A DNA stretch of 64,000 nt from Myxococcota bacterium (GTDB lineage Bacteria; Myxococcota_A; UBA796; UBA2385), in contig JBIJDH010000006.1 in assembly GCA_044344255.1 (NCBI GenBank), positions 128,001-192,000 on the forward strand, given 5' to 3'. This document shows positions 1 to 63,388 of the stretch, piece after piece. The notes beneath the pieces are model-generated. The model worked only from the letters and a program-made list of their open reading frames with translations. It made no database searches and was not told the DNA's origin. The translations under genes were made by a program, and so were the position numbers. Within the stretch, counting starts at the first letter, position 1, and every line of letters begins with the position of its first letter.

Positions 1-3000
1 ACGGCTCGGCTCGAGCACCCCAACATCGTGCCGGTCTATGAGATCGGTCGCAGCGCGGACGGAGCGCTCTACTACACGATGCGCCGCATCCGTGGGCGCT
101 CCCTCGCGGATGCCATCGAGAGCGCCCCCTCCCCGCAAGCCCGCCTCGCGCTGCTCCCTCACTTCCTCGCGGTGTGCAACGCGGTGGCCTTCGCGCACAG
201 CCGTGGGGTGGTGCACCGAGACCTCAAGCCCGCCAACATCATGGTCGGTGAATTCGGTGAGACGCTCGTGGTGGACTGGGGCATCGCCCGCCTGTTGGGA
301 GACGCTCGGCCGGACGTGCCCGCCCCCGCGGTGGAGACCCTGCTGCAGGATATCGGCGAGACGCGCGTGGGCGCCGTGATCGGCACCCCGGCCTACATGA
401 GCCCGGAGCAGGCCCAGGGTGCCGAGGTCACCCCTCGTTCGGACGTCTGGAGCCTCGGCGCCGTCTTGCACGAGCTGCTGACCGGGCGCTCACCGTACGA
501 AGGGGATCCTCGCACCACATTGGCGCGCGCCGTCCTCGGCTTCGTCCCGCCGATCCGACTCGACCCCGGCGTCCCGGCCGAGCTCGCGGCCGTCGCCTGG
601 CGTGCCATGGCGGCCGCACCCGAAGATCGGTACGCGACGGCGCTGGATCTTGCCGCAGACATCGGCGCGTACCTCGATGGCAGGCGCGTGGCCGCCTACA
701 CCTACCGGCCGCGAGACGCCCTGCGCCTCTTCGGGCGGATGTACCGGGTCCCGCTGGCGCTCGCCGGGGTGGCCGCGCTGGTGTCCCTCGTGGTGGGCGC
801 GGCGGCCTTCGTGCGGGTGCGCGCAGAGCGGGATCGCGCGGTCGCCGCGGAGGTCGCTACCGCCGAGGCGTTGGAGGAGGCCCGGCTCCGGGGGCTCGTC
901 GCGCGGGCCGCAGAGGCGGTCGCGAGGGGAGACCACGGCGCCGCCCTGGCGCTGGAGCGCGCCGTGTACGCCGCGGGCGACGGGAAGACCGGCGGGGCCG
1001 CCGCCGCCGAGGCCTTTCGGCTCATCCAGGAGGGCGCCGGCCTGCACACGCTGCCGGTCTCGGACGGCCCCGTGGCGGACGTACGGTGGGCGCTCGGCGG
1101 CGAGCTGGTGGTGGCGCTCACAGAGGATGGCGCGGTCTCGGCGTGGCGGGTGGCGACGGGCGAGCGGGCGCTGCTGCTCCCCTACGACGACGTGACGCAG
1201 ATGGTCATCCGGTCCGACACCGAGGTCTTGGTGGTGCGGGAGCCGAGTGGAGCTCCGGGTGAGGTCGAACGGTGGGACCTGCGGACCGGGGCGAAGTTCG
1301 GAGGCTGGACAGAGGGCGCCGACGAGGGCGTGAGGTTGGTGGCGCTCTCTCCCGACGGCGGACGGCTCGCCATCGCCCACTTCACGCTCCGCGTCTACGA
1401 CGTGGCGACCGGGCGCCTCCTCTGGCGCATGGAGCGTGACCCTTCCCAGTGGCAGGTCAACGCGGTCGGCTGGGCGCAGGGCGGACAGACGCTGTTGGTC
1501 GGAATCTCCGGCCTCCAGGCGCTGAAGGTCCTCGATGGCGCGAGCGGCGCGGTGCGGGCGTCGCTCTCGACCACCGGCTCGGTGTGGGCGCTCGACGTGA
1601 GCGCGGATGGGGAGCGCGCCGCGGTGGCGGGCGGGGGCGGGTGGGTGTACGCCTGGGAGCTCTCCACCTCGCGCCCGCTCCTGGCTGCGCGGGAGCACGA
1701 GTCGCGGGTGGCGGCCGTCGCCTTCGACGGGGATGGAGGTCGGCTCGCGGCGCAGTCCCTGCTTGGGCGGGTCGTGGTGTGGAGCACCGCGACCGGCGCG
1801 CGCGAGGCGTCGGTGGAGCCCGGGTCGGATGGAGAGTCGGTGTTGAGGTGGACCAGGACCGGCGAGCTCCTCGTCGCGACCCCGGGCCACGTGGCCGCGT
1901 TGGTCTCCCCGCGGACGGGCCAGGTCCGGGCGGCCTCGGTGGGGGCGCTTGGGCCCGTGACGGCCGTCGCGCTGCACGAGGGGCGACTGGCGGTCGCCGC
2001 CGGCGACGGGAGGGTTCGGATCGGCGTCATCCCCGCCGAAGGCGTGCGGGCCCACCTCGCGGCCGCTCACTTGACCCACGTGCGCGCGTCGATGGGCCTC
2101 GCGGTGGCGAGCGATGGTCGCGCGGTGGTGGGATTGGCGGACGGGACCGCCCAGGTCTTCCCCTCGGATGGGGCCCCCGTCCGAGGCGACGGTGCCGCCT
2201 GCCGGCTCGGCTTCATCGACGGGGGCGGTACGCCTGTCGTCCTCCACACGCCGAGCTGCGCGGTGGGTCATGCCACCTGGTTCAGCGGCCCGGTGGGTGT
2301 CGTGCTGCGCCTCCTCTCCGACCCGCCGCGCGTCCTGTTCAGCGAGCCGCCGCAGTCGCCGCCGGAGCACTCGAACAACGGGGGTGCCGCCGCCCTCTCC
2401 CTGGGCGCGGGCTTCGCTGCTTGGGCTCGCCTGGACGGCACGGTGGGGGTCGGCGACACCCGCTCCGGCCGGGTGTGGACCGCCGCGCCGGTCGATGGTC
2501 GGGTCGATTGGCTGGAGTTCTTGGACGGCGGCCGGGTGCTCGCGGGCCAGCTCTCGGAGTCCGAGCGGGCCTTCGCCCTCTGGTCGACCTCCGACGGCCG
2601 GCTCATCACCACGGTCGGGGAGGGCGACTTCGGGTACCCCCTCGGTGGGGAAGGCCCCCAGCTCCTCGCCCCCGACCTCGAGCACGGCACCCTCCAACGT
2701 TGGGAGATCGAAGGCACCGCGCTCCCGCCGCTGCCGGGCCTCGTCGGCGCAGGGGTCAGCGCGCGCGCGCCGGGAGTCACGGTGCTGGGCGACGACGCGG
2801 GGCGTATTCGGGTGGTCTCGGACACCGGAGGCGCCCCGGTCGACCTCCGCACGGGAGAGGGCGAGGTCCGGGCGCTGGCGATCACGGCCGATGGCGCGCG
2901 GTTCGCACGCGGCTCGGGTGACGTCGTGACCGTGCACGACACCACCACGGGCGCGCTCCTGCAGCGAGTGTCCGTGAAGACCCCGCGCCACCTCCGCTTC

Positions 3001-3225
3001 GCGGTGGACGGAATGACCCTGTGGATCGTCGGCGATGAGGTGGTGCTCGAGGTCCCCACGCCCGCCTACGACGCCGCTCGCATCATCGAGGCCTCCGGCG
3101 CCGCCACCAACCTGCGACCTTGTCCCGACACCTTCGACGTCGTCCCCGTGGTGCCGTACCCATCGGTCGAGAGCACCTGGGCGCCGCCGGAGTCCTGCGA
3201 GCGAGCGCCAGACGTGGGCGATTGA
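1..3225 (+). CDS. Ser/Thr protein kinase with transmembrane helix and C-terminal WD40 repeats (5' truncated by window)
   Basis: Frame open from base 1 (TARLEHPNIVPVYE). Kinase motifs HRDLKPAN, DWG, GTPAYMSPE, DVWSLG. Hydrophobic segment LALAGVAALVSLVVGAAAF, then many WD40-like repeats (e.g. HESRVAAVAFDGDGGRLA...VVVW). Confidence 0.92.
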   Translation, partial: TARLEHPNIVPVYEIGRSADGALYYTMRRIRGRSLADAIESAPSPQARLALLPHFLAVCNAVAFAHSRGVVHRDLKPANIMVGEFGETLVVDWGIARLLGDARPDVPAPAVETLLQDIGETRVGAVIGTPAYMSPEQAQGAEVTPRSDVWSLGAVLHELLTGRSPYEGDPRTTLARAVLGFVPPIRLDPGVPAELAAVAWRAMAAAPEDRYATALDLAADIGAYLDGRRVAAYTYRPRDALRLFGRMYRVPLALAGVAALVSLVVGAAAFVRVRAERDRAVAAEVATAEALEEARLRGLVARAAEAVARGDHGAALALERAVYAAGDGKTGGAAAAEAFRLIQEGAGLHTLPVSDGPVADVRWALGGELVVALTEDGAVSAWRVATGERALLLPYDDVTQMVIRSDTEVLVVREPSGAPGEVERWDLRTGAKFGGWTEGADEGVRLVALSPDGGRLAIAHFTLRVYDVATGRLLWRMERDPSQWQVNAVGWAQGGQTLLVGISGLQALKVLDGASGAVRASLSTTGSVWALDVSADGERAAVAGGGGWVYAWELSTSRPLLAAREHESRVAAVAFDGDGGRLAAQSLLGRVVVWSTATGAREASVEPGSDGESVLRWTRTGELLVATPGHVAALVSPRTGQVRAASVGALGPVTAVALHEGRLAVAAGDGRVRIGVIPAEGVRAHLAAAHLTHVRASMGLAVASDGRAVVGLADGTAQVFPSDGAPVRGDGAACRLGFIDGGGTPVVLHTPSCAVGHATWFSGPVGVVLRLLSDPPRVLFSEPPQSPPEHSNNGGAAALSLGAGFAAWARLDGTVGVGDTRSGRVWTAAPVDGRVDWLEFLDGGRVLAGQLSESERAFALWSTSDGRLITTVGEGDFGYPLGGEGPQLLAPDLEHGTLQRWEIEGTALPPLPGLVGAGVSARAPGVTVLGDDAGRIRVVSDTGGAPVDLRTGEGEVRALAITADGARFARGSGDVVTVHDTTTGALLQRVSVKTPRHLRFAVDGMTLWIVGDEVVLEVPTPAYDAARIIEASGAATNLRPCPDTFDVVPVVPYPSVESTWAPPESCERAPDVGD

Positions 3226-3302: not shown

Positions 3303-4835
3303 TCAGCCCTTGAGGAAGAGCAGGGCCGTCTGCAAGGTGACCGCCAGCTCGGGGCTCGGGTCACTCCACGCCTTCCGCGCTTCGAGGAGCACGCCCTCGA
3401 GGCCCTTCAGGCGGAGGGCGGCGGCGGCGTCGATGGCGCGGACGTCTCGCTCGCCGACGCGGGAGAGGAGGTGGGCCTCGACCCACTCCCGATCGTGGCC
3501 GGTCATCGCGCGGAGGGGCGCCTGCTGGATGGCGTCGCCCGTGGTCGCGGACAAGGTGGCGAGGGCCTCTTCGCGCAGGGCCGCGTCGCCGGGGACGTAG
3601 GTGAAGGGCGCCTCGCCGCGCTCGGCCTGCTTGAGCTGTCGCCGGGCCTGATAGGCGGCCGGCTCCCACACCGCGCGGAGGGGCGTCGCGAGCCGGAGGG
3701 CGAGGGCGGCGGCGGGGCCCCAGGAGCGAGGTCCGGACGCGGGCGGGAGGTCGAGGCGGGTCACGATCGTGGCCCAGGCCCCCTCGCGCGCGGCGCGGTC
3801 ACCGGAGAGCAGCCGGTCCGTGAGCTCGGGGAGGGCGGCGGGGTCGGGGGCGGAGGGACCGGCGGGGGGGCGCAGCCGCGCGAGGCTGCGGTCGATCGCG
3901 GCCACCAGCGGCTCGCTCCAGCCCCAGCGGCGCCGCGCCTCCTCGAGGGCCGGGACCGCCGCGCGGAGGCCGATGGCGCCGATCGCGTCGGCGGCGCGCG
4001 GATCGCGGGCGCCGAGCTCGTAGACCAGCTTGTGCTCGGCCCACTGGCGGTCGTGCCCCTCCATCGCCTCGATGGCCGCGACGTCGATGGCGGGGGAGGC
4101 CTCCTCGAGGCTGGCCCAGAGGCGACGGATGAGCGCGGGGTCACCTGGTGCGTAGACGAGCCCGAGGGCCTCGGCGGTGGAGCCCCCGGCGAGCGCCTGG
4201 AGGGCCTCGGCGGCGGCGGCCGCGCCCGCCGGCCAGACGCTGTCGAGGCCGGTGATGGTGCGGGTGTAGAGGGTCCGGAGCGGCGTCTGGTGGGGCTTGT
4301 TGAGGGTGGCCGGGAGGGCGAGCTTCTCGATGAGCCCCTCCCAGGCGTGCATCCGCGCGGTCACGCTCGAGGCGCGCAGGGCCACGAGCAGGCCGGCGAT
4401 CGCCTCGGGCCCGGCGAGCTGGCGGAGGCTCCAGGCGGCCTCGGCGGCGTCGAGGGGGGCGAGCCCCTGGCCGAGCTCGGCGCCGAGACGAGCGGCGACG
4501 GCGGGGGAGGGGCGGAGCAGGGCGAGGGCGCGGGTGGCCGTGACGCGCACGGCGGGGCGGGGATCTGCCTCGAGCTTCTCGAAGAGGGGGATCGCTTCGG
4601 TCACCCCGAGGGCGGCGAGGGTCTCGATGGCCCGGGTGTCCCCCTGCTCGAGGGCGCGCTGCTCCAGGAGCTTGTCGGCGGCTGCCCGCTCCTCGGCGCT
4701 GAGGCGACCGATGTTGTCGAGATCGTAGGTGAGCTCGCCCTGGCTTCCGCCGCGGGCGACCTCATCTTGAAAGCGCTCGAACGGCGTGAGCTCTTGGGGA
4801 GTCGCGCCTGCTTCCGTGGCTGAACCAGCCTCCAT
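3303..4835 (-). CDS. HEAT/PBS-lyase-like helical repeat protein with internal duplication; candidate immunity protein
   Basis: 510-aa ORF with HEAT-like units (DPRPAVRVTATRALALL). Duplicated block AMEGHDRQWAE..DPRAADA / AMTGHDREWVE..DVRAIDA. Starts 30 bp after the toxin stop. Confidence 0.75.
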   Translation of the reverse strand: MEAGSATEAGATPQELTPFERFQDEVARGGSQGELTYDLDNIGRLSAEERAAADKLLEQRALEQGDTRAIETLAALGVTEAIPLFEKLEADPRPAVRVTATRALALLRPSPAVAARLGAELGQGLAPLDAAEAAWSLRQLAGPEAIAGLLVALRASSVTARMHAWEGLIEKLALPATLNKPHQTPLRTLYTRTITGLDSVWPAGAAAAAEALQALAGGSTAEALGLVYAPGDPALIRRLWASLEEASPAIDVAAIEAMEGHDRQWAEHKLVYELGARDPRAADAIGAIGLRAAVPALEEARRRWGWSEPLVAAIDRSLARLRPPAGPSAPDPAALPELTDRLLSGDRAAREGAWATIVTRLDLPPASGPRSWGPAAALALRLATPLRAVWEPAAYQARRQLKQAERGEAPFTYVPGDAALREEALATLSATTGDAIQQAPLRAMTGHDREWVEAHLLSRVGERDVRAIDAAAALRLKGLEGVLLEARKAWSDPSPELAVTLQTALLFLKG

Positions 4836-4865
4836 GTACCATCCCGGTGACGTTGGCTGCGTCGA

Positions 4866-7800
4866 TCAGGGCGAGCCGCTCGCTGTCTTCTGGGCGGCGT
4901 ACTCGTCCATCCGCTGCTTGTTCTTGTCCTCCGCCAGGGTGACCATGCTGACCCGGTCGCCCTGCTGGTAGGTGCCCTTGATGCCGCCGCCCGTGAAGCG
5001 GTGGTCGGCCTCTTCGATGTTCGCGACCTTGACCGCGCAGGCGTAGAACGTGATGTCGGGGACGGGCAGCGCCTTCTCCTCGAAGAAGCCGGCGAAGGTG
5101 GGCTGCTCGATCTTGTTGAAGATGCTCTGATCGCGGCTGGAGCCGAGGCCCACGAAGCCGAGGTACCGCCGCCCGCTCACCTTGTTGGAGGCGTGCATGG
5201 CGTACGCCTGGGAGAGCGCGCCCCAGAGCTGGGTGTTCCAGGCGCCGTCGATGTTGAGGCCGTCAAAGAGGCCGCCGAGGGCGCTGGACTCGAGGGCGAC
5301 CTGGGCGTTGGCCTTGGCCATCGAGCAGCCGGGCTTGCCCGACCAGAAGGCGAAGGTGGAGGCGCCGGCCGCCTGCTTCGACATGTACTTGGCCAGCGCG
5401 TCGCAGATGGGATCGAACTCCGAGATGATGGACTTCATCGTGTCGGAGCCGAGGTCCTTGTACCGCCCGGCGGGGTCGACCGCGGGGGCGGCCTTGTAGG
5501 CGGAGTTCGTGCGCAGGATGGTCGAGACGGTCTGCAGCCAGATGCGCTCGGCGTCGCCGCCGGGGTCGCCCATGCCGATGCTGTTGGAGATGCGGATGAA
5601 GCGGCCCTTGAAGGTGGCGTAGAACTCGGAGGTCAGGGTCTCGCGCGGGTTGAGGTCGACCGGCTTCGCCGACTCGCCGAAGGCCGTGAAGCCCTTGGCG
5701 ATGTGCGTGCTGACCTCGGCTTCTTTCGTCCAGACGAGCGACTTGACCTTGTCGCGGGCGCCGTGCTTGTCCGGCATCGCCCACAGATTGTTGAGCAGCC
5801 TTCCGAGCGAGGTGATCCCGCCCTTGGCGGCGCGGAGGGCGGCGGCGGTCTCGGAGCGGACGGTGGTGTCGGCGATCGTGTTGAGCCGCCCCGTCCAGTC
5901 GGCGAGGAGCTGGTCGGCCGGGGTCGGCGTGCTGGCGACCATCGGGGTCAGGCTGCCGCCCGCCGTGGCCACCCACATGCTGTGCGACTCGGCCCCCGCG
6001 GTGAAGCCCTGGCGCTGCTCGAGGGCGCCGGTGAGCTCGGTTTGCTGGGCCTCCGGTGTGGAGGCGCCGGTGACCTGGCCGGCGGTGGCGGCGTCGATCG
6101 CCTGCTGGACCTCGGCGGGGAGCTCGACGCTGGTGACGCTCACGAGCTCGACGGAGATGTTGCTGCTGCGCAGATCGGCGGCGGTCCCGCGCTTGATCTC
6201 GGTGGCGATGGCCCCGAACTGCGCGGACAGGCCGACCACGCCCACCGCGGCGGTGCGGGCGGCGGCGGCGGAGCCGAGGGCGGAGGTGAGGCGGCTCTGG
6301 GCGCTCCCCTGGCGGCCGGCGTCGAGCGGCTGGTCATTGCTGCTCTTCAGCCGCGCGGCGCCGTGCATGGTCATGCCGATGGCGCCGTAGTCCTTGTCGC
6401 GGACGGTGAGCCGGGGCGTGACCAGGGTGACCGAGCCCGGGGTGGCGGTGGTGCCGCGGCCTTGCTGGCTGTTGCCGCCGGTGTTGGCGGCGTCGACGCC
6501 GTTGCCGCCGGTGGCCTGCCCTTGGTTCGCGTTCGACTGCTGGGCGGTGCCCGGCGCGGCGCCGGCCTGGGTCTGGGCGCCGTCCGGCGTGGCGGTGTTG
6601 GTGCCCGCCTGCACCTGCGTGCCCTGCTGGGTGCCCGACTTCGCCTTGGACTCCTTCGGCTTGAAGAGGTCCTTGGCCTTGGCGATCAGCTTCTCGATGC
6701 CGTCGTCGATGCGCTTGTGGAGGGCCTGGAGGACCTCCCGCACCTTCTTGCCGATGCCGGAGACGCCGATCAGCTTGGCGAGCAGATCGATGGCGATGGG
6801 GATCATGCCGGCGAGGGCCGACTCGACCTGGGCCGCCGCGCCGCCGATGGCGCCGGTGGCGATGGCGTGCACCGAGCCGATGATCGACTTCACGACGCCG
6901 TAGATGCGGCTGATCTGATCCCGCATGAATTCGTAGAGGCGCCAGGCGGTCATCACCGCCTGAACGATGGCGCCCACGGGGTTGAACATCGTCGCGATCT
7001 TGGTGACCGCGGCGATGACGATCTTCTCCATGAGGAAGCTCTGGATCTTGCTCACGACCTCGTCGTAGATGCCGTCGAGGTGCTCGGTCAGGTTGTTGGC
7101 CAGCCCCTCGAGGCCGCCCGACCACATCGTGTCGACGAAGCCCACCACCTGCTGCATCTTCTCGACGTTCTCGGCGCCGATGTGCTTCTTGGCCTTCTCG
7201 AGGACGTACTCCTTGTCGATGCCGGTCACCTGCATGACGAGGGAGGCGATGCCCCCGGCGTCGAAGGCGGTGGGCATCGTGATGCCGGCGTCGCCGGCCT
7301 GACCGGTGAGCCAGTTCACGAAGCCGGTCTTCAGGTGATCGACGAAGTGGTCCTTGAAGTTGTTGAAGCCGAGGGCGGCGGCGTCGATGAGGTTGCCGAC
7401 GAACTGGCCCGGGCTCTTGACGATGATGCTGATCGTCTCTTCGCCCTGGGCCATCACGCTGCGGAACTCGGCAGGGTCAATTCCGCAGAGCTTGAGGGCG
7501 GCCTCGAGGGCCATCCACAGGAGCTCCTGCCAGTTGCCGGTGGCGAGGGCCTTGGCGATCTCGAGGGCGGCGTTGACCGCCTCGTTGAAGGTGTCGGAGA
7601 TGGCCTTCAGCGTGTTGTTGATCGCGTCGCAGACCTGGGCGATGGTCTCCTTCAGCCGGTCGGCGAAGTGGTCGACCATCTCACAGGCGAGCTCGACGGC
7701 CTCGTCGATGAAGGCGCAGAGCGCCCGGGCGAGCCCGGGGAAGATGCTGCCGAGCAGGTTGTTGACGAGGCTCTTCAGGTACTCGCCGAAGGCCTTGATC

Positions 7801-10800
7801 ACGCTCTTGACGAAGCTGGCGGCGGCCTCGATGATCCTGTTGGCGAAGGCCTTGGCGGCGTCGAGGATCGTGGCGACGAGGCTGCGGACGGCGTCAAAGA
7901 TGGCGGTGACGGCCTCGGCGACGGCCTTGATGGCGTCGGCGACGAAGTCTACGGCCTTCTGCCACCAGGAGCGGTCCTTGGACTTCTCCTCGGCGGCCTT
8001 CTTCTCATCGGCGGCGCTCTTCTCGGCCTTCGAGACCTCCTGGCCGGCCTTCTGCTCGGCCTTCTGGAACTCGCTGTCGATCTTGGCGCCGTCCTGGGTG
8101 ACCCGGCTCTGAATGGAGCTGAGGTCAGAAGACTGCTTCCGACGGGCGTCGGAGTCGACCTTGCTGATCTCCTTCTGCTGCGCCTGGATCGTGCTCTGCT
8201 GCTCGGACGTGATGTCGGCGCGGGCCGAGCGGACCGCGTCCTCCTGGGCCGTCTGGGCCTCCTGGTTCGAGCGCTCGACCTCGGTCTGGGCGCGGCTGAT
8301 CTCGGTCTCGTGGGCGGTGTCGCGAGTGGTGGCGGCGGCGTCGAACTCGGCCTGGGCCTGGCTCATCGCCCCGTCCATGCCCGGGGCCATCGCCTCGTCG
8401 AACTTGGCCTGCACGTCGGCGGGCAGGTTGAGCGAGAGGTACTCCTCGAACTCGGGGAGCTGCTCGGTGCCGGAGATCGCGCCGAGCGCGATGTCGGGCA
8501 CCTCGGTCTCTTCACTCAGCTCCTTCAGCGTGACCTGCTCGGGGCCGGGGCCGGTGCGGATGGCCAGCTCGGCCTCGACCTGGGCGGCCTGGGCCTGGGC
8601 CATACCCTCGGAACGCTGACGCTCGGTGCGCTGGGGGTCCTGCTCACCCTGGAGCTTGATCGCCGGCTTCGGGTTGGGCGTGGTGGCGATGGTGCCGTCG
8701 GTGGTCTTGATCTGGCGGATCGCGCTGGCGCCGGCCTGGGCCTTCTGGTCGTCCGTCGCCGCGGCGGGGAGGCTGCTCAGGCTCTGGCCGACCGAGGCGT
8801 TGCCGGTGAAGCGGCCCGGGTTGGTCGGCGTGACCGGGGGCGGCGTGGGCGTCTGCCCCTGCACCTGATCGGTGATCTCGGCGCGCTGGGCGTCGACCTC
8901 GCCGTCGCCCTTCGCGTCCGGCGCCATCTGGCCGGACATCGTGGCGGTGAAGGTGGGGAGGGCCTCGTTGAGGGCCGCTCCCTCGACCTGGAAGCCTGCG
9001 TCGACGTTCCCGCCGAGCGAGGGCCAGGAGGCCGCCTGCTGAGTGGCGCCGGCCGTGGCGAAGTTCTTGAACGACTCGGCCGCGGTCTGCCCCGCGGCGA
9101 CGGGCTCGGGGGCCGGCGCCGGGGCCGAGCCCGCGCCCATGCCGCCGGAGCCGCCGATGGAGCCGGCCGAGCTCGTGGAGGAGGCCGTGGAGGTCGAGCC
9201 GCCGCCGCCGCCACCGCCACCGCCACCGTCTGTGGAGGTGGTGGAGGTGCTCGATGCGGTGGAGCCGGTCGATGCGGCCGAGCTGCCCTCTACGCTGGAC
9301 TCCCCGCTCGCGCCGCCGGTGGCGCCGCCCTCCTCGCTGTTGCCGAAGCGCTGGCTCATGCGGTCGGCGATGGCCGGGGCCTCTTCACTGCCGGCGAGCC
9401 GAGACACCGCCTCGGCGGGGTTGGAGAGGGCCTGCTGCGCCTGCCCGGCGTAGCCCTGGGCCTGCCCGGCGACCTGCTGGACCTGCCCGGCGGCGCCCTG
9501 CACGGCGCTGCCGATCTCGCCGAGGGTGCCTCCCATGCCGGAGAGCTGGCCCGCGGTCTCGCTCACCCGCCCGGCGAGCTCGCCCACGCTGCCGAGCGCG
9601 CCGCTGAGCTCGCCGGCCACGTCGGCGCCCTGGCTGAGCGCGTCTCCGAGGCCGGGGGCCGCGCCGAGGAGGGCGCTGACGGCCTCGCCTGCGAAGCCCT
9701 TGGCCTCGCGCTCGTGAGCGTCACCGGGCTGAGAGATACCCGCGCCACCGCCACCTTCGACGGCGTGGTGGAGCTCTTCGGCGAGGAGCTTGACCTTGCC
9801 GGGGTCGCCCATCGAGGGGGCCTGACCGCGGCCAAAGAAGATGTCCTGACCCTCGGTCATCGCGCGGGCCTTGTGGCCCTGGGCGTAGGCTTGCGAGGCG
9901 GCGTCGGTGTGCACGCGCACCTTGTCGATCGCGCCGCCGAAGAGGCCCTGGAAGCCCTTCTTCAGGTCTGAAGGGAGCTGCTGGCCCTTGCCCGTGGGGC
10001 GGGCGACGTCGGGGCGCGCGTCCCGGCGGAGGAAGCCGAAGGCGTTGCGGTTCTTCTTGCGGCCGGCGGGCTTGGGGGCCTCGAAGATGCGGTCGAGCAG
10101 GGCGTCGGGCACGCCCTCGGCCTTGAGCCGGCCCTTGTAGTGCTCGCTGCCGCCGGTGAAGGTCTTGGCGGCCGAGACGAGCTCGTCGTCGGTGTAGATC
10201 TCGCGGATGGCCTCGTACCAGCCCTTGCCACCGCGGTTCTCGTAGTGCCACCACTCCTTCTTATTGTAGGACTTCTCCCAGCCGTTGTGGGCGGGGATGC
10301 GGTTCCAGCCGAACTTGGCGGCGAGGCCGGTGACGTCGAGGAACTTCTTCTGGCCGGCGCCCTTGCCGAAGGGGTTGGTGTCGGCGGTCTTGAGCTGGTC
10401 TTCCGTCAGCGTCACCATCAGGGCGCTGTTGTCGCTCTCGCCTGGAGTCCCGCCCGTGGGCGCGGCCTGGGTGCGGTCACCGCCGTTCCCTGCGCCCTGC
10501 TGCTCGTTCGGCTTCGCCTCTTCCTTCACGGGGAGGTAGAGCCGGAACATCATCCGCTCGGTGCCCCCCTCCTCCTTCTGGGCGTCCTTCAAGATGAGCC
10601 AGGGGAGGTCCTGGTTGAGATCGAGGGCGCGGCCGGTCTTGTGCCAGCTCACGTTGTCGGCGCCCACCTTGCGGGTGGTGTAGTCGAGGCCGCGCGAGGT
10701 GTCGCCGAAGCCGGTCGACACGTCGTGCCCGGTGATCTTCTTGACCTCGTCGGCGAACTTGCGGAAGCCCTCGACCACGGCGTCGGACAGCTTCTCGTGC

Positions 10801-11996
10801 GGCTTCGTGCCGTCCTTGGCCACCGGCGTGAGCTTGTGGGTGGTCTTATCCTTGTCGGCGTCGACGTCGCGGGCGAGCACGGCGCCCTCGCCGGCCTGCT
10901 GCCCGGACTCGACGGCGAGCCCCGCCGAGGCCACGGCCGGCCCGTCGACGTCGAGCCCGCCGAGGTCTGCGCCCTGCAGACCGCCGTTCGTGGCGTCGGC
11001 GACCGCGCCTTCGCTGGCGAGCGAGCCGCCGAGGGCGGTGACCGGCGCGGTGACCGGCGCGGTGTCCGCGTCGTTGTCGACGCTGTGACCGTGGCCGATG
11101 GACTGGACGACCGTGGCGGCGCGGGCCTCGGCCTCGATCTCGGTGGCGTCGGTGGGCCGGGAGACGTTCATGCCCTCGCCGCGGTCACCGGTCGGGCGCA
11201 GGCGGCCCTCCTGGTGCTGTACGACGTGGGTGAGCTCGTGCGCGATGAGGTGAAGGCCCTCTCGGCTGCTCGGGTTGAACTCGCCCTGGTTGAAGTAGAC
11301 GTCGGTGCCCACGGTGAAGGCGCGGGCGTGGATGGCGTCGGCGGCCTGCACGGCGGCGCCGTCGGTGTGGAGGCGGACCTGCGAGAAGTCCACCCCGCCG
11401 AAGGCGTTGCCGAGCTTGCTCTCGAGCTCGGTGGAGATGGGCCGGCCGCCGCGGCGGGTGGCGGTCTCGACCTTGGAGATGGAGCGACGATCCCAGGCGC
11501 CGCCGCCGGGGGCGTCGGCGTGGCGGGCGACGGCCTCCCCGGTGAGTGCGCTCGGCCCGGACACCCCGAGGCCAGCGACCCCGAGGCTGCTGCCGCCTCC
11601 GTTTCCGGAGCCGTACTGGCCGAGCCAACCGTTGACGAAGCTGTTCGAGAAGAGGCCGCTGGCGCTGTCGGCGACGAGCACGCCGGCGGCGCCGAGGGTC
11701 ATGGCGCCCTGGACCACCTGGACGGGGCCGCCGTCGATGCCCGAGAGCGCGGCCTGCACGAGGCTGTTGCCGTAGACCTCATGCAGCGAGGCGTTCAGGC
11801 CCGCCTGGGGCTCCTGACCCGGCAGGTGCCCCGCGATCCGTCCGGAGCTCTGCTCCGGCGACCGCACACGCTGTTCGGCGCGCTCTTCTTCCTCGCCGCG
11901 GAGGCCGGGGATCGGGCCCCTGGACGGCGCAGGCCGGCGACCCCGGGAGGAGTCGGTTTGAGGACCGGAAGACTCGAAGCCAAAGGAAGGGGGCAT
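4866..11996 (-). CDS. Giant DUF4157 (eCIS-core) multidomain protein: DUF4157, M15 peptidase, degenerate DUF4157, helical stalk, SPFH-like module, ADP-ribosyl cyclase/NADase-like C-terminus
   Basis: ATG at 11996 with GGAGG upstream, ~2376 aa. DFSQVRLHTD..ARAFTVG..HELTHVVQ; SWHKTGRALD..EWWH; DKVRVHTD..EELHH; FWSG..LES..LWGALS..SIFNKIE. Confidence 0.85.
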   Translation of the reverse strand: MPPSFGFESSGPQTDSSRGRRPAPSRGPIPGLRGEEEERAEQRVRSPEQSSGRIAGHLPGQEPQAGLNASLHEVYGNSLVQAALSGIDGGPVQVVQGAMTLGAAGVLVADSASGLFSNSFVNGWLGQYGSGNGGGSSLGVAGLGVSGPSALTGEAVARHADAPGGGAWDRRSISKVETATRRGGRPISTELESKLGNAFGGVDFSQVRLHTDGAAVQAADAIHARAFTVGTDVYFNQGEFNPSSREGLHLIAHELTHVVQHQEGRLRPTGDRGEGMNVSRPTDATEIEAEARAATVVQSIGHGHSVDNDADTAPVTAPVTALGGSLASEGAVADATNGGLQGADLGGLDVDGPAVASAGLAVESGQQAGEGAVLARDVDADKDKTTHKLTPVAKDGTKPHEKLSDAVVEGFRKFADEVKKITGHDVSTGFGDTSRGLDYTTRKVGADNVSWHKTGRALDLNQDLPWLILKDAQKEEGGTERMMFRLYLPVKEEAKPNEQQGAGNGGDRTQAAPTGGTPGESDNSALMVTLTEDQLKTADTNPFGKGAGQKKFLDVTGLAAKFGWNRIPAHNGWEKSYNKKEWWHYENRGGKGWYEAIREIYTDDELVSAAKTFTGGSEHYKGRLKAEGVPDALLDRIFEAPKPAGRKKNRNAFGFLRRDARPDVARPTGKGQQLPSDLKKGFQGLFGGAIDKVRVHTDAASQAYAQGHKARAMTEGQDIFFGRGQAPSMGDPGKVKLLAEELHHAVEGGGGAGISQPGDAHEREAKGFAGEAVSALLGAAPGLGDALSQGADVAGELSGALGSVGELAGRVSETAGQLSGMGGTLGEIGSAVQGAAGQVQQVAGQAQGYAGQAQQALSNPAEAVSRLAGSEEAPAIADRMSQRFGNSEEGGATGGASGESSVEGSSAASTGSTASSTSTTSTDGGGGGGGGGGSTSTASSTSSAGSIGGSGGMGAGSAPAPAPEPVAAGQTAAESFKNFATAGATQQAASWPSLGGNVDAGFQVEGAALNEALPTFTATMSGQMAPDAKGDGEVDAQRAEITDQVQGQTPTPPPVTPTNPGRFTGNASVGQSLSSLPAAATDDQKAQAGASAIRQIKTTDGTIATTPNPKPAIKLQGEQDPQRTERQRSEGMAQAQAAQVEAELAIRTGPGPEQVTLKELSEETEVPDIALGAISGTEQLPEFEEYLSLNLPADVQAKFDEAMAPGMDGAMSQAQAEFDAAATTRDTAHETEISRAQTEVERSNQEAQTAQEDAVRSARADITSEQQSTIQAQQKEISKVDSDARRKQSSDLSSIQSRVTQDGAKIDSEFQKAEQKAGQEVSKAEKSAADEKKAAEEKSKDRSWWQKAVDFVADAIKAVAEAVTAIFDAVRSLVATILDAAKAFANRIIEAAASFVKSVIKAFGEYLKSLVNNLLGSIFPGLARALCAFIDEAVELACEMVDHFADRLKETIAQVCDAINNTLKAISDTFNEAVNAALEIAKALATGNWQELLWMALEAALKLCGIDPAEFRSVMAQGEETISIIVKSPGQFVGNLIDAAALGFNNFKDHFVDHLKTGFVNWLTGQAGDAGITMPTAFDAGGIASLVMQVTGIDKEYVLEKAKKHIGAENVEKMQQVVGFVDTMWSGGLEGLANNLTEHLDGIYDEVVSKIQSFLMEKIVIAAVTKIATMFNPVGAIVQAVMTAWRLYEFMRDQISRIYGVVKSIIGSVHAIATGAIGGAAAQVESALAGMIPIAIDLLAKLIGVSGIGKKVREVLQALHKRIDDGIEKLIAKAKDLFKPKESKAKSGTQQGTQVQAGTNTATPDGAQTQAGAAPGTAQQSNANQGQATGGNGVDAANTGGNSQQGRGTTATPGSVTLVTPRLTVRDKDYGAIGMTMHGAARLKSSNDQPLDAGRQGSAQSRLTSALGSAAAARTAAVGVVGLSAQFGAIATEIKRGTAADLRSSNISVELVSVTSVELPAEVQQAIDAATAGQVTGASTPEAQQTELTGALEQRQGFTAGAESHSMWVATAGGSLTPMVASTPTPADQLLADWTGRLNTIADTTVRSETAAALRAAKGGITSLGRLLNNLWAMPDKHGARDKVKSLVWTKEAEVSTHIAKGFTAFGESAKPVDLNPRETLTSEFYATFKGRFIRISNSIGMGDPGGDAERIWLQTVSTILRTNSAYKAAPAVDPAGRYKDLGSDTMKSIISEFDPICDALAKYMSKQAAGASTFAFWSGKPGCSMAKANAQVALESSALGGLFDGLNIDGAWNTQLWGALSQAYAMHASNKVSGRRYLGFVGLGSSRDQSIFNKIEQPTFAGFFEEKALPVPDITFYACAVKVANIEEADHRFTGGGIKGTYQQGDRVSMVTLAEDKNKQRMDEYAAQKTASGSP

Positions 11997-12089
11997 CCTG
12001 CCTCCGAACGCACGGATACGCGGGGATGTTATCACCGCCGGCCGTCCTGGTCGGCACAAAGCGGGTGCCTTTTGTTGGAGATTCCGACC

Positions 12090-13097
12090 TTGAGCCGTCC
12101 CGTCCACCTGCGCAGGCTGCCGCTCTCCCTCGACGTGTTCGATGACGAGGCCTTTCACCGCGGCCTGCTCGAGCGGGTCGAGCGGGACGTCGTGCTCCAG
12201 GGGCAGCCCACCCCGGCGATCCACCTGTTCCACGACGATCACGAGCGAGTGCTCGACTGGTCGCGGGTGAGCGCGGCTGACCCCGACGCCGATGTCGGCG
12301 CCACCTTCGCCGCCCTCGCCGACGGGCGCGGGGTAGAGCGCCGCGTGGTCGTGGCGATGCTCGATGACCGAAAGGGCAGCCCCGCCGCCTTCATCCTCGA
12401 GCAGCTCCGCGAGGATGGCGAGCCCCGCGGCTGGTGGCTGGCGCTCCGGCCGTTCACGTGGAACGCTGCGCGGGTGGGGCGCTTCCACGGGGCCTGGCAG
12501 GTGGGGCAAGGGCAGGAGGGGCTGCCGCCGATGTTCGCCGAGCTCGTGAGCGCCGGCGAGGGGCGCCGCGCGGCCCGGGTCTTGCCTCCGGCGCCGCTCC
12601 AGCCCGACATCCGGGTCGCCTTTGGGGAGCTGCCCGAGGGGCAGGCGCCGCCCCAGGGGGTGGAGGGCTTCGCGAGCCTCGCCGTCGCGATGGTGCTGCC
12701 GGAGGTCCAGCGTGAGGGCATCGATCACGTCAAGGTGATCCGCCTCGCCGGCGCGGCCTGGGAGGAGTGGCACCTCCACGGCGACATGCCGGCCGACTTG
12801 GACGACATGGTGCGCTACATCGCGCAGCGAGAGAGCCCCGCCGAGGCCGTCGCCGTGGCCCAAGGGGTGCTCTTCATGGAGGAGGGCGAGCCGACGAAGG
12901 CGCTGCGGCTCCAGGCCGAGCGGGGCGGGAAGCGGGTGGAGCGTATCTTCACCTTCCGCTTCCCCGAGGGGCAGGCGCAACGCCTGCCCTCCCGCGCCTA
13001 CGCCCGCGGCCTCGGCCCCGTCGAGGAGGGGGAGGGGTGGCTCGGCGTCGAGCCGATGGTCCTCTTCGAGCTCGGCCCGCTCGGCGTGGACGCCTGA
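12090..13097 (+). CDS. Hypothetical protein (~335 aa), divergent from the DUF4157 gene
   Basis: 3' part of the long + ORF looks coding. TTG at 12090 follows GGAG. The upstream part of that ORF is antisense shadow. Confidence 0.7.
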   Translation: MSRPVHLRRLPLSLDVFDDEAFHRGLLERVERDVVLQGQPTPAIHLFHDDHERVLDWSRVSAADPDADVGATFAALADGRGVERRVVVAMLDDRKGSPAAFILEQLREDGEPRGWWLALRPFTWNAARVGRFHGAWQVGQGQEGLPPMFAELVSAGEGRRAARVLPPAPLQPDIRVAFGELPEGQAPPQGVEGFASLAVAMVLPEVQREGIDHVKVIRLAGAAWEEWHLHGDMPADLDDMVRYIAQRESPAEAVAVAQGVLFMEEGEPTKALRLQAERGGKRVERIFTFRFPEGQAQRLPSRAYARGLGPVEEGEGWLGVEPMVLFELGPLGVDA

Positions 13098-56831: not shown

Positions 56832-58553
56832 TCAGCCCGTCCAGCCGACCGCGAGGCCTGGGCAAGCGGGAGGGCCGGGGCAAGTGGGCGAGGTGCAGGG
56901 CGTGAAGGCGCCGTCGGGATCGAGGGGATCGGGGGGACGGACGCGGTCAGCGCGGAGGGCGTAGGAGGGGGCGGCGGCGCCGACGGGCGGCAGGCGGGCG
57001 AGCTCGGCGTCGCTCGCCCTGCGGAGGGCGCAGGGGAGGAGGGCCTGGAGCTCGGGGCGGCCGGCGAGGGCCAGGAGCGAGCCCCCCTGGGCCGTGAGGC
57101 GGAAGCGGAGGGGCAGGGCGACATCGAAGGGTCGATCGGCTGGGCCGCGGATCACCTGCACGAGGCCCACGTCCGCCTCGGTGAGGCGAGCGAGCCGCTG
57201 GAGCCCCTCGAGCTCCTCGGGTGAGGGCGCGGCGGTGAAGACGTGGTCGAAGCTCTGGACGCCGCGGAGGCCGAGGAGCTGCCGATCGGAGAGCGCGAGG
57301 AGGTTGTTGAGGGGGCCCCCCACCCGGACGGCGCGGAAGGACAGGCGCAGGCACTCGCGGAGGAGCTCGGCCAGGGCGGGGTGACGCAGCGAGGCGGCGT
57401 CGGCGACGCGGAGCTCGGGCGCGCCCTCCTGCGCGGCGCGGAGGAGCAAGGCGCGCAGCTCCCGGCTGCTCCCCTCGAAGACCACCCGCAGCGTGGCGGG
57501 CGGTGGGGCGCTGGCCTCGAGCAGCAGCGGATCTCCGCCGAGGCCCCCCGGCTCACCCGCTCGATGGAGCGCGCGGTGGACGTCGCGCAGGCGGGTGGAG
57601 GGACGGCGGCCGGCGCGGGGCGGCGGTGGCGGCACAGGCTCGCCGGGCGCGACGGCAGGGGGCTGGAGCGCCGCGCGCGGCGGCCGAGGCGGGGAGAGGG
57701 CCTCGATCATCCCGAAACGATCGACGTAGCCGAGGGGGACGCCGCCGCAGACCGGCGCGCCGGGGCAGCGCCCGCAGGGCAGGCCCGGCGACCGCGCGGT
57801 GGGCTCCTCCCCCTCGGCGGGGCCCGGGCCGCCGCCTGCGCCGGGCCCCTCGCCCTCGAGGGTGAACAGGGCCTCCGGCAGCCGGGGCGCGGCGCAGCGG
57901 GGGAGCCCGAGGAGCTGGAGCCGGAGGTCGCGCGCGCTCGCGACGTCGACCAGGGCCTCGAGCGGTCCCTCGAGGAGGCCGAGACGGGGCGCCAGCGCGA
58001 CATAGTCGTGGGCGGCGGGCCCACAGCGCCGGAGCCAGCGGAGGCGAAAGGCCCGGGCCCCGAGGTGGGCAGCGACGGAGGCGGTCTCGGCGGGGTGGTC
58101 TTGCGTGGGGCGGCAGAGGGTCGCCTCGACCTCGACCTCGAGGCCCGCGGCGGCGGCGGCGCGGATCGCCGCCCGCGCCCGCCGCGCCGCGCCGGGGAGC
58201 CCGACCAGCCAGTCGTGGGCGTCCGCGCGCGCCGAGTGGAGGGGCAGGCGCAGGTGGCGGAGGCCGGCCGCGTGGAGGGAGGCCGCCACGCCCGCGGCGC
58301 TGAGGGCGAGGCCATCTGTGGCGAGGCCGACACGGTGGCCAGCGAGGTGGAGCGCGCGGATGAGCGCGGGCAGCTCCGCCCGCAGGGTGGGCTCACCGCC
58401 GCCGATCCACAGCGGGGGCGCCGCGAGGGAGGTGCTCGGGGGGCCGGCCTGGCGGAGGGCGTCCTCGAGGCTGCTCGCCGTTCGGGGCGGGGCCTCATCG
58501 AGGCGGCCGCGCTGGCGGGGCCCGCCGCCGAGATCGATCCAGCGCTCGGGCAT
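56832..58553 (-). CDS. Tandem radical-SAM-like (HxsC-type) protein lacking CxxxCxxC
   Basis: GGGEPTLR, LATDG, LHSARADAHD; PCGRC..CGG; a second degenerate barrel ending PC..C..CPG. Confidence 0.72.
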   Translation of the reverse strand: MPERWIDLGGGPRQRGRLDEAPPRTASSLEDALRQAGPPSTSLAAPPLWIGGGEPTLRAELPALIRALHLAGHRVGLATDGLALSAAGVAASLHAAGLRHLRLPLHSARADAHDWLVGLPGAARRARAAIRAAAAAGLEVEVEATLCRPTQDHPAETASVAAHLGARAFRLRWLRRCGPAAHDYVALAPRLGLLEGPLEALVDVASARDLRLQLLGLPRCAAPRLPEALFTLEGEGPGAGGGPGPAEGEEPTARSPGLPCGRCPGAPVCGGVPLGYVDRFGMIEALSPPRPPRAALQPPAVAPGEPVPPPPPRAGRRPSTRLRDVHRALHRAGEPGGLGGDPLLLEASAPPPATLRVVFEGSSRELRALLLRAAQEGAPELRVADAASLRHPALAELLRECLRLSFRAVRVGGPLNNLLALSDRQLLGLRGVQSFDHVFTAAPSPEELEGLQRLARLTEADVGLVQVIRGPADRPFDVALPLRFRLTAQGGSLLALAGRPELQALLPCALRRASDAELARLPPVGAAAPSYALRADRVRPPDPLDPDGAFTPCTSPTCPGPPACPGLAVGWTG

Positions 58554-58590
58554 GTGCTCCTCCAGGGTCCGCGCCTCCAGGGTCCGCTCC

Positions 58591-59178
58591 TTATCGTGTG
58601 GGGGCCGCCCGTCGCCCGATCGCGGCGGCGAGCGCGGCGACGCTCCCGGCGATGAGGGCCACCGCCCCCCAGAGCAGGTAGAGCGCGCTCGCGGGGAAGC
58701 CGAGCCCCTCTGCCCAGCCCCCGAGCCCGGCGCCGGTCTGCCCGCCCTCGAAGTGGGGGCGAGCCGAGGAGAGGATCGGCTCCAGCCGGAAGCGCTGCCC
58801 CTCGCGGATCGCGATGAACACGACTGGATAGGTGGACCGCTGCCAGGCCGGGGGGACGGTGACCTCCACCTCGTGCAGGAGCGGGAGGCCGTCTGCGGTC
58901 CCCGCGAGGCTCAGCCGCGCGCCTTTGGGGGGTGGATCCAGCAAGGCCCAGTGCTCCCCGTCACCCGGTGCGTCGTAGCTGCCGGTCCCGTCGTCGCTCA
59001 AGAGCACGGCGGCCGGCTGGCCGGTGAGGGTGGCGGTGACCTGCACGTCCTCCACGCCGGCCGGGAAGGCGACGGCCACGGCCACAGAGCCCGCGGGCTC
59101 GCTGTCCCCGCCGGGCGGGGGGGGGGCCTGACTCCAGCCGAGGCCGCCGAGCGCCACGAGCAGCGAGAGCGCGCTCAT
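58591..59178 (-). CDS. Secreted/membrane-anchored protein with choice-of-anchor-X-like DDG..D..GDG motif
   Basis: Signal peptide, LSDDGTGSYDAPGDGEH, C-terminal TM followed by RR. Confidence 0.65.
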   Translation of the reverse strand: MSALSLLVALGGLGWSQAPPPPGGDSEPAGSVAVAVAFPAGVEDVQVTATLTGQPAAVLLSDDGTGSYDAPGDGEHWALLDPPPKGARLSLAGTADGLPLLHEVEVTVPPAWQRSTYPVVFIAIREGQRFRLEPILSSARPHFEGGQTGAGLGGWAEGLGFPASALYLLWGAVALIAGSVAALAAAIGRRAAPTR

Positions 59179-62782: not shown

Positions 62783-62924
62783 CGAAGCGCGACCCATCGG
62801 GGCTGGCGGATTAACGGGTGGGATGCCATCTTGGGGTGCCGGGCGACGCCCGCGGCCCCCTCCGAGGCGGCCCTCGAGGGATCCTCGAGGGCCCCTCGAC
62901 CTCCTGTACCGGAGCGCCAACCTG

Positions 62925-63317
62925 ATGTTCAGCCGCCTGATCACCGCCTCGGCCGGCCTCGCTGCGCCTCTCGTCCTGCGCGGCTCCCGTTGCCTCCTCT
63001 TCGGCGCCCTCGTGTGGGTCACCGCTTGTTCCACGACGCGAGACTGCGCCACCTTGGACAAGCCGGCGGATCGCGACTGGTGCTGGTACGAGGTCGCGGT
63101 CGCCGCCGCCGAAGCCGATGATCTCCCGAAGGTGAACGAGGCCGTCCAAAAGATCGAGGAGCCGATGGTGCGATCGGCCGCCGTCAACAAGGTGCTCTCC
63201 CTCGACCCGCAGGGGCTCGACGAGAAGAGCGCGATCACGATGTGCGACACGCTCATCGAGACCGACCAGAAGACCTGCATCAACACCTGGAAGCGGCCCC
63301 ACCTCTGGACCAACTGA
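62925..63317 (+). CDS. Small Cys-containing putative lipoprotein
   Basis: ATG after GGAG; WVTAC lipobox; C..DWC, C..C motifs; strong coding bias. Confidence 0.7.
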   Translation: MFSRLITASAGLAAPLVLRGSRCLLFGALVWVTACSTTRDCATLDKPADRDWCWYEVAVAAAEADDLPKVNEAVQKIEEPMVRSAAVNKVLSLDPQGLDEKSAITMCDTLIETDQKTCINTWKRPHLWTN

Positions 63318-63388
63318 CCCTCCCTTCTGCGGGGCGACGGGCGGGGGGGCGCGCGCCGCGGCGCCGCCCCCGGTCCCTCGCCCCACGG

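Follow-up and report, generated by a model that had tools for sequence, protein, structure and literature searches.

What is encoded by a very long gene in a Myxococcota genome, how its product would reach a target, and what role the neighbouring gene has, are the questions raised by this locus. The window, i.e., the whole stretch of DNA that was analysed, covers 64,000 nucleotides (nt) of Myxococcota bacterium (GenBank assembly GCA_044344255.1, contig JBIJDH010000006.1, positions 128,001 to 192,000 of the forward strand), and its G+C content is approximately 72%. Two co-oriented genes are the subject here. The first encodes a protein of 2,376 amino acids (aa), hereafter the effector, and the second a HEAT-like protein (P0002). 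The effector's C-terminal domain has the ADP-ribosyl cyclase (ARC)/CD38 fold and is predicted to destroy NAD(P)+. The effector is probably delivered by a contractile injection system (CIS) encoded elsewhere in the genome, and the second gene is likely its immunity gene.

4866..11996, minus strand: whole effector gene, 2,376 aa plus stop (open frame, third-position GC frame plot, start shared with protein P0004)
3303..4835, minus strand: HEAT-like candidate immunity gene, 510 aa (sub-threshold HEAT_2 match, internal repeat, linkage to the ARC domain)

Gene structure

The effector open reading frame (ORF) begins with ATG at 11996 and ends with TGA at 4866-4868, and all of its 2,376 codons are open. 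In the third-position GC frame plot, the coding signal starts at approximately 11950-12000, and the stop-to-stop frame upstream of the ATG is non-coding. The homologous protein P0004 (2,373 aa) has the same N-terminus and is 99% identical to the effector, i.e., 19 substitutions and one 3-residue gap. The gene of P0002 starts 30 nt past the effector TGA on the same strand. The two genes, their coordinates, their spacing, and their co-orientation are as given in a preliminary description of the locus.

C-terminal ARC domain

4881..5693, minus strand: ADP-ribosyl cyclase (CD38)-fold domain, predicted NAD(P)+ glycohydrolase; residues W2218, E2236, D2245, W2258, S2262, and E2297

The last approximately 260 aa gave no match in the PDB when searched as a single sequence. 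Homologues were searched among 1.84 billion representative proteins (E ≤ 0.001), and 155 representative relatives were obtained. Fifty of these were scanned with Pfam. None showed a family on the ARC stretch, 19 carried an N-terminal DUF4157 domain, and one carried an endonuclease. In the alignment of 36 sequences (A1), W2218, L2235, E2236, G2241, W2258, S2262, and E2297 are invariant. The profile made from the relatives matched three PDB sequences, i.e., Tac1 (9OUF, E 1.9e-4), ARCtox (9RO8, E 1.5e-3), and bovine CD38 (E 3e-3), and the motifs FWS, TLE, W..S..YA, and IE align among the ARC domain and these three proteins. Judged by sequence, the domain is a divergent subfamily, whose link to known proteins is seen only with a profile built from its relatives.

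The AlphaFold (AF2) model of the domain was confident (pLDDT 93.4, pTM 0.90). In Foldseek, all four matches at E ≤ 0.001 were CD38 (best E 1.9e-4, probability 1.00). Among the 44 matches listed, 41 were CD38, CD157, or Aplysia cyclase, and the other three were a Vibrio NADase domain. With VIA-align, the best 50 matches were all CD38, CD157, or Aplysia cyclase, at Z 10.2-11.8 and with 169-189 residues aligned.

Tac1 and ARCtox are the two characterised bacterial ARC toxins, and hydrolysis of NAD(P)+ is demonstrated for both (PMC12356396, PMC12605009). The activity of ARCtox is lost when any of its two Trp or two Glu is changed (PMC12605009). Their equivalents in the effector are W2218, E2236, W2258, and E2297, all invariant among the 36 sequences. 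When the Glu corresponding to CD38 E146 is lost, cyclic ADP-ribose (cADPR) is more readily released, as described in PMC12356396, and E2236 is the equivalent of CD38 E146 and Tac1 E516. Because E2236 is kept, the domain is predicted to be a glycohydrolase yielding linear ADP-ribose, and not to release cADPR. The C-terminal approximately 260 aa have the ARC/CD38 fold, and the W/E/W/E active site is conserved. The destruction of NAD, which the preliminary description had attributed to a NADase-like C-terminus, is thereby supported as a prediction by the fold, the catalytic residues, and the profile matches to Tac1 and ARCtox.

The terminal position is a feature of this protein but not of all its relatives. 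In three loci (L036, L039, and L040, from genomes G387, G362, and G367), the ARC domain is internal to proteins of 2,400-3,500 aa whose last domain is a calpain-type cysteine protease (PF00648). These loci lack a P0002-like gene behind the effector relative and represent a different multi-domain variant of the same scaffold. The earlier view of the NADase as a C-terminal tip therefore holds here, but not for the calpain-ending relatives.

DUF4157 domains and tape-measure-like body

11487..11996, minus strand: N-terminal Gly/Ser/Ala/Pro-rich region, residues 1-170, no family (composition; no Pfam match before residue 186)
11205..11441, minus strand: DUF4157/eCIS_core copy 1, residues 186-264 (PF13699, E 3.7e-28; 101.8 bits in the genome search)
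9957..10814, minus strand: M15/LAS-like insert, candidate zinc peptidase, residues 395-680 (motifs; fold matches of low score)
9747..9977, minus strand: DUF4157/eCIS_core copy 2, residues about 674-750 (Pfam, E 1.5e-12; 57.3 bits in the genome search)
7977..9119, minus strand: conserved coiled/charged region, residues ~960-1340 (phmmer of residues 830-1340)
6597..7979, minus strand: tape-measure-like helical region, residues 1340-1800 (PHROG matches, homologues, hydropathy)
6051..6410, minus strand: SPFH/Band_7-like module, residues 1863-1982 (PF01145)

The modules are ordered as the preliminary description had them, i.e., DUF4157, M15-like insert, degenerate DUF4157, helical region, SPFH-like module, and NADase-like domain. 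PF13699 (DUF4157/eCIS_core) was recognized on two stretches of the effector, residues 186-264 and about 691-750, with 139.3 bits against a cut-off of 22. In copy 1, the zinc-binding HExxH motif is intact (H253-E-L-T-H257). Copy 2 is degenerate, since E740-E-L-H-H744 replaces the motif and the first His is missing. Among the collected proteins, the region of residues 1-170 is conserved only in P0004, P0006, and P0077, and it is a possible packing signal. Residues 800-960 are a Gly/Ser/Ala-rich linker by composition.

The helical region of residues 1340-1800, hereafter the stalk, matched at least 15 PHROG families of tail length tape measure proteins. The top matches were phrog_4200 (E 1.9e-14), phrog_1272 (E 3.1e-13), and phrog_5493 (E 2.6e-12). 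Two hydrophobic helices were found in it by hydropathy (residues 1659-1678 and 1725-1749). The helical stalk of the preliminary description is thus present, but that wording was incomplete, because the region resembles phage tape measures. The stalk is found once in the source genome. An Atlas search with it was uninformative (best score 0.83).

Homologues of the stalk numbered 129 at E ≤ 0.001, in proteins of 1,300-3,100 aa. Their named sources are Myxococcota, Chloroflexus, Cyanobacteria, Bacteroidota, Acidobacteria, and Actinobacteria, and the closest named relatives are from Myxococcota. Most of the 120 homologues listed carry DUF4157. The conserved coiled/charged region co-occurs with the stalk, since the phmmer search with residues 830-1340 matched most stalk homologues over it, and residues ~960-1800 are the conserved core of the family. 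The additional domains vary, i.e., DNA/RNA non-specific endonuclease (PF13930), calpain (PF00648), AHH (PF14412), PF14521, ARC, or no known domain. A constant delivery part is thus combined with varying toxin domains, as in polymorphic toxin systems (PMC3482391), and the C-terminus is not invariant among the homologues, whose collection the preliminary description had proposed.

The SPFH match is borderline, with 26.5 bits for the isolated piece and 20.5 bits in the whole protein against a cut-off of 23.6, and it covers profile positions 50-168 of 176. Homologues of this stretch are present in P0005, P0015, and P0029 and in loci L036 and L040.

The insert of residues 395-680 had been called a M15 zinc peptidase. 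The signature of M15/LAS peptidases is S-x-H-x-x-G-x-A-x-D together with W-H. The insert has S450-W-H452-K-T-G-R-A-L-D459 and E581-W-W-H584, which presumably resemble the zinc-ligand motifs of VanY-type M15 peptidases, and the motif residues are invariant in a 3-sequence alignment (A3) of the effector and the only two relatives found. The homologue search at near lengths gave a single protein (P0263). The profile of A3 against PDB sequences gave only a beta-lactamase at E 0.7, and tblastn against 50,697 phage records gave no match. A weak lead came from the Atlas search, in which Peptidase_M15_4 was on 10% of one cluster (score 0.88). The AlphaFold model from the three sequences was poor (pLDDT 53.7), and Foldseek gave nothing significant with it (best E 2.2). 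In an exhaustive structure comparison of this model with 48,161 chains, the L,D-carboxypeptidase LdcB/DacB was first at Z 4.7. Seven further LAS-fold entries, i.e., Ply500, VanX, LysB4, VanXYg, VanYB, BaLdcB, and ShhN (Sonic hedgehog N), were in the top 50 at Z 3.1-3.9. It is plausible but unproven that this insert is a LAS/M15-like zinc peptidase.

Contractile injection systems in the source genome and the phylum

A machine encoded elsewhere had been supposed in the preliminary description, and a genome search for CIS genes gave two loci. The source genome has 8.18 Mb in 83 contigs and is 95% complete. The CIS loci are on contigs C52 and C83, and the effector window is on C74. The C52 locus comprises an AAA ATPase, a 244-aa DUF4157 protein, two sheath genes, a gp19 tube, CIS_tube with LysM, a GPD hub, gp25, Baseplate_J, and Tail_P2_I. 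The C83 locus comprises a sheath, two gp19 tubes, CIS_tube, gp25, and a Phage_base_V spike.

Delivery by a type VI secretion system (T6SS) was considered and set aside. The T6SS sheath VipB was not found in this 95%-complete genome, and the single PAAR match was on another contig.

A phylum sample of 401 genomes was searched. Of these, 198 have the gp19 tube, 35 the stalk, and 17 the ARC domain. A tube gene is present in every genome with the stalk (35 of 35) and in every genome with the ARC domain (17 of 17). In two genomes (G068 and G294), the stalk gene is 16-23 kb from the tube gene on the same contig.

Two further proteins of the source genome were observed in this search. Beside the Phage_base_V spike gene on C83, a 1,372-aa protein (L058:1196-5311) is weakly similar to HopBA1 and to the C2 domain of the Pasteurella multocida toxin (E 1.3e-6), and it may be that machine's own effector. 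On contig C43, a 525-aa protein (L059:5900-7474) has a weak DUF4157 match, two PG_binding_1 domains, and a NlpC/P60 peptidase. Like the effector, it is a DUF4157 protein encoded away from the CIS loci, in this case with a wall-hydrolase module.

Downstream HEAT-like gene

The HEAT_2 family (PF13646) was matched by P0002 with 22.4 bits, under the cut-off of 27.7, over one stretch of residues 68-117. Only this and a weak CpcE match were found in Pfam and NCBIfam scans. The term HEAT-like is a description here, and no family membership is meant. P0002 is composed of one unit of approximately 330 aa and a copy of residues 143-309 of that unit (36% identity, E 1e-16). PADLOC assigned no defence family to P0002 or to the ARC piece. 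A word-index search with P0002 gave its own cluster and one relative of 74% only.

Homologues of P0002 are in 14 of the 401 genomes, and six of these are ARC-positive, against approximately 0.6 expected by chance. The linkage of the two genes, already suggested by the preliminary description, is supported in other genomes. ARC-linked homologues span three families of the phylum. Genome G011 was added to them by tblastn, and locus L062 is a further example, taken from a locus search with a single protein that gave two close loci only.

The arrangement is regular. ARC-linked homologues always lie downstream of the ARC gene on the same strand (L032, L035, L037, L042, L043, L045, and L062), and among the 17 loci fetched from other Myxococcota, six have the HEAT-like gene in this position. 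If ARC is the last domain of the protein, the homologue is immediately next (this window, L032, L037, and L042). Where domains follow ARC, it comes after one intervening gene (L035, L043, and L045). ARC-terminated ORFs are present in seven loci, this one included, and the homologue is directly next in four. In L038, where ARC is also C-terminal, a downstream ORF of 336 aa has a weak N-terminal match to P0002 (hhalign 75%, E 2.6e-5). Pairwise identities of the ARC domains and of their HEAT-like partners correlate with r 0.82, for 15 non-independent pairs from six loci of which one close pair drives much.

Two near-identical HEAT-like copies were observed in L045 (2366-3193 and 5379-6365). They lie downstream of a single toxin gene that bears the stalk, with approximately 3 kb between them, and suggest a recent duplication of a gene block.

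Proposed mode of action and alternatives

It is proposed, with a probability of approximately 0.68, that the effector is loaded into and ejected by one of the two remote CIS and kills by hydrolysis of NAD(P)+, and that the gene at 3303-4835 is likely its immunity gene. If Tme of Streptomyces davawensis (PMC11126660) is taken as a model, the effector would be tethered to the spike or baseplate through its N-terminal DUF4157. The tape-measure-like helices may lie in the tube lumen, and after contraction the hydrophobic helices may aid passage through the membrane. Lysin domains in phage tape measures cut peptidoglycan locally, and the M15-like insert would act in the same way. The ARC domain would then deplete NAD(P)+ and yield linear ADP-ribose, and in the producer and its kin its active site would be blocked by the HEAT-like protein. 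Autoproteolysis by the first DUF4157 copy, in which HExxH is intact, may free the modules, as proposed in PMC3482391.

A more far-reaching version is tentative and much less probable. In it, the effector would be a self-cleaving, multi-cargo tape measure. A polyprotein of approximately 2,400 residues would be threaded through the tube of a CIS encoded in trans, and its own DUF4157 zincins would cut it after firing into a peptidase that cuts the wall, a tape-measure/SPFH conduit that inserts into the membrane, and a CD38-like NADase. The HEAT-like protein would be a new ARC immunity family. Since the gene is not linked to the machine, a myxobacterium could in this version swap warheads without touching the CIS locus.

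Several observations weigh against the proposal, and the first concern the domains. The last approximately 260 aa matched no Pfam family at E ≤ 10, the ADP-ribosyl cyclase family included, and the Foldseek TM-scores of the ARC model are low (0.33-0.47). The M15-like insert has no Pfam match at E ≤ 10 and no PHROG match, and no significant sequence or fold match was obtained, all Z being below 5. The M15 call of the preliminary description, and with it the supposed cutting of peptidoglycan, has the motifs and these weak fold matches as its basis.

Other observations concern the downstream gene, where the best surviving alternative is found. The HEAT-like protein could be a chaperone, an adaptor, a loading factor, or an unrelated neighbour, with self-protection from elsewhere, e.g., by production just before lysis. 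HEAT-type repeats are common scaffolds. No P0002 homologue is present in 10 of the 17 fetched ARC loci, including L036, L039, and L040, and six loci (L049-L054) have a homologue with no ARC domain in the fetched flanks, which are cut by contig ends in L049 and L054. P0002 is also unlike the ARC immunity families named in the literature, and immunity genes are absent for many eCIS (extracellular CIS) toxins in the accounts of PMC8213781 and PMC3482391. However, six of the 14 homologue-bearing genomes have the ARC domain, with the homologue downstream and on the same strand in three families. Tandem copies in L045 and orphan copies elsewhere are also against this alternative. Copies of both kinds are typical of immunity genes. 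Linkage, orphans, and duplicates together make the pattern of a toxin-immunity pair, which makes P0002 a likely immunity protein and the other roles rather unlikely.

In a further alternative, the effector would act in the producer and not on other cells. The CIS may fire inside the producing cell during development or stress, a behaviour already suggested for the cytoplasmic CIS of Streptomyces, and the NADase would thereby carry out a regulated death, with the HEAT-like protein as a safety catch. Tme, the only studied relative by architecture, works in the life cycle of its producer according to PMC11126660. A self-protecting partner gene is present, as such a role would have it. The closest named relatives are from Myxococcota, which are known for developmental lysis. 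Intracellular and extracellular firing are not separated by the sequence, but a M15-like wall peptidase and the classical toxin-immunity layout fit an attack on neighbours at least equally well. ORF family scans of the window gave no developmental regulator linked to the effector. Action within the own cell is unlikely, and delivery to other cells is preferred.

The remaining observations concern delivery itself. The effector gene is neither in nor near any CIS locus, and no CIS or T6SS family was found in the 34 other window ORFs scanned, in agreement with the preliminary description. Homologues of the CIS proteins of this genome were not found within approximately 9 kb in 23 related loci. 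The co-occurrence of stalk and tube is weaker than it appears, because tube-positivity reaches 100% in whole families and related genomes do not count as independent cases. Since the gene is unlinked to CIS genes, the delivery claim rests on domain association and co-occurrence. The effector could instead be exported or displayed by another route, or be a prophage tail tape-measure remnant that acquired toxin domains, as its stalk is homologous to phage tape measures. Against this, it has two domains of DUF4157, a family described as highly specific to eCIS loci (PMC8213781). The gp19-type tube genes of all 35 stalk genomes and the short stalk-tube distance in G068 and G294 argue for a CIS as well, and ORF family scans found no phage genes in the window. 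Such a route or remnant is slightly less likely than firing within the producer.

Least probable is that the ARC domain is a signalling cyclase making cADPR or a related nucleotide, or otherwise a different catalyst, and not a NAD-depleting toxin: non-toxic bacterial ARC enzymes that release cADPR exist, e.g., Nac1 (PMC12356396), and this subfamily is divergent, has no Pfam match, and is 13-18% identical to CD38, but the Glu whose loss favours cADPR is invariant as E2236, 19 of 50 relatives have it joined to modules for toxin delivery, and a gene of protective type is linked to it.

Significance

If the proposal is true, the recently characterised bacterial CD38-like NADase toxins would be linked to CIS through a tape-measure-type effector, a route that is not listed in the ARC studies compared here. 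The ARC subfamily is sizeable and unannotated, with 155 representative clusters, no Pfam model, and DUF4157 on 19 of 50 members scanned. The HEAT-like protein may represent a new immunity family. Effectors of the Tme type can evidently sit far from any CIS locus, and therefore surveys restricted to the surroundings of CIS operons would overlook them. The programmable delivery of proteins by eCIS is being actively pursued, and a natural multi-enzyme cargo of 2,376 aa would be informative on the loading limits of these machines.

Neighbouring genes

The window neighbours of the effector include a Ser/Thr kinase-WD40 protein, fructose-1,6-bisphosphatase, and aconitase, i.e., housekeeping or unrelated genes. 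A promoter and terminator scan of the minus strand gave nothing exceeding shuffles.

The kinase gene (28-3225, plus strand) encodes 1,065 aa with a Ser/Thr protein kinase and WD40 repeats, and its end is 78 nt from the end of the convergent HEAT-like gene. A Ser/Thr kinase likewise flanks the CIS locus on contig C52. On the other side of the effector, a divergent ORF of 331 aa (12102-13097, plus strand) has a good coding signal. It has no Pfam or PADLOC family. Because it lacks a Pfam family and a counterpart in the 23 related loci, it was not counted in the system. At the far end of the window (57225-64000), five long ORFs in a row have no Pfam family at E ≤ 0.001, i.e., 57225-58655 (plus), 58591-59190 (minus), 59175-60959 (minus), 60923-63445 (minus), and 63446-64000 (minus).

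Comparison with known systems

The nearest studied protein is Tme (BN159_7576). As described in PMC11126660, it carries DUF4157 at the N-terminus, a tape-measure-like region in which membrane helices are predicted, and an EndA-type nuclease at the C-terminus, is recovered together with spike and baseplate proteins on purification, and acts in sporulation and release of extracellular DNA in the life cycle of its own producer. Compared with this published description, the effector likewise exceeds 2,000 aa and combines an N-terminal DUF4157 with a tape-measure-like middle and a C-terminal enzymatic toxin domain, and many homologues of its stalk carry the EndA-type nuclease family of Tme (PF13930). 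The effector differs in ending in an ARC-fold NADase instead of a nuclease, in its degenerate second DUF4157, M15-like insert, and SPFH-like module, and in its gene, which lies outside a CIS cluster with a candidate immunity gene next to it. The tme-like genes are defined partly by synteny inside the CIS cluster (PMC11126660). The effector gene is a very long ORF with an N-terminal DUF4157 and tape-measure homology, but has no such synteny. It is therefore classed as an unlinked relative that is expected to work like Tme, and not as a member.

Among ARC toxins, Tac1, ARCtox, and Tox-ARC share with the effector profile-level homology, the same W/E/W/E catalytic set, a toxin at the end of a delivery protein, and a protective gene downstream. 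Their carriers are LXG proteins of type VII secretion systems (T7SS), PAAR, VgrG, or Rhs proteins of T6SS, or CdiA, whereas a DUF4157/tape-measure-like protein is the carrier here. Their immunity proteins are Imm74, Imm63, or small unrelated proteins, in contrast to a HEAT-like protein of approximately 310 aa. The ARC domain of the effector has approximately 260 aa and aligns over nearly the whole CD38 ectodomain, compared with 145 residues (458-602) of the Tac1 toxin domain. Tox-ARC was predicted in 2012 with Imm74/Imm63 immunity and routes through type II (T2SS), type V (T5SS), T6SS, and T7SS secretion, and the Photorhabdus virulence cassette (PVC) route is not listed for it in the table of that study (PMC3482391). 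The ARC studies of 2025 add T6SS, T7SS, contact-dependent inhibition (CDI), and some other carriers, and neither refers to DUF4157 or eCIS in its main text (PMC12356396, PMC12605009). A full-text literature search, judged by titles and abstracts, gave no CIS-delivered ARC toxin, and supplementary tables could list such toxins.

The effector also resembles the eCIS-associated toxins (EATs) with DUF4157 (PMC8213781, PMC11297309), i.e., an N-terminal DUF4157, a very long linker exceeding 1,000 aa, and a C-terminal toxin. Linkers above 1,000 residues are described as frequent in DUF4157 toxins (PMC8213781). In the account of PMC11297309, 88% of known EATs are within ten genes of an eCIS operon, and NAD-targeting EATs with RES and TIR domains are known. 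The effector gene is not within such a distance of an eCIS operon, and ARC is not named among the EAT activities in these texts, of which the supplementary tables may list more.

MARTX toxins are comparable in carrying several enzymatic modules and built-in peptidase domains on one very long polypeptide, and the RDTND NADase domain of Vibrio vulnificus (PDB 8KA0/8KA1) was among the Foldseek matches of the ARC model (E 3.3e-3). Unlike MARTX, the effector has no RTX repeats and no cysteine protease domain, delivery through a phage-tail-like machine is proposed, and autoprocessing is hypothetical.

Every module of the effector is of a known kind. Because its stalk is a tape-measure homologue, the effector is placed with an already described class of effectors, and the combination of domains that the preliminary description found unfamiliar is in print in its general form, i.e., as Tme-like (PMC11126660) and as DUF4157 with a long linker and a toxin (PMC8213781). 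The ARC variant appears to be new. This applies to an ARC NADase on a tape-measure-type DUF4157 effector, to the added M15-like and SPFH-like modules, and to the location away from any CIS locus. A divergent ARC subfamily with no Pfam model and a HEAT-like candidate immunity family likewise appear to be new.

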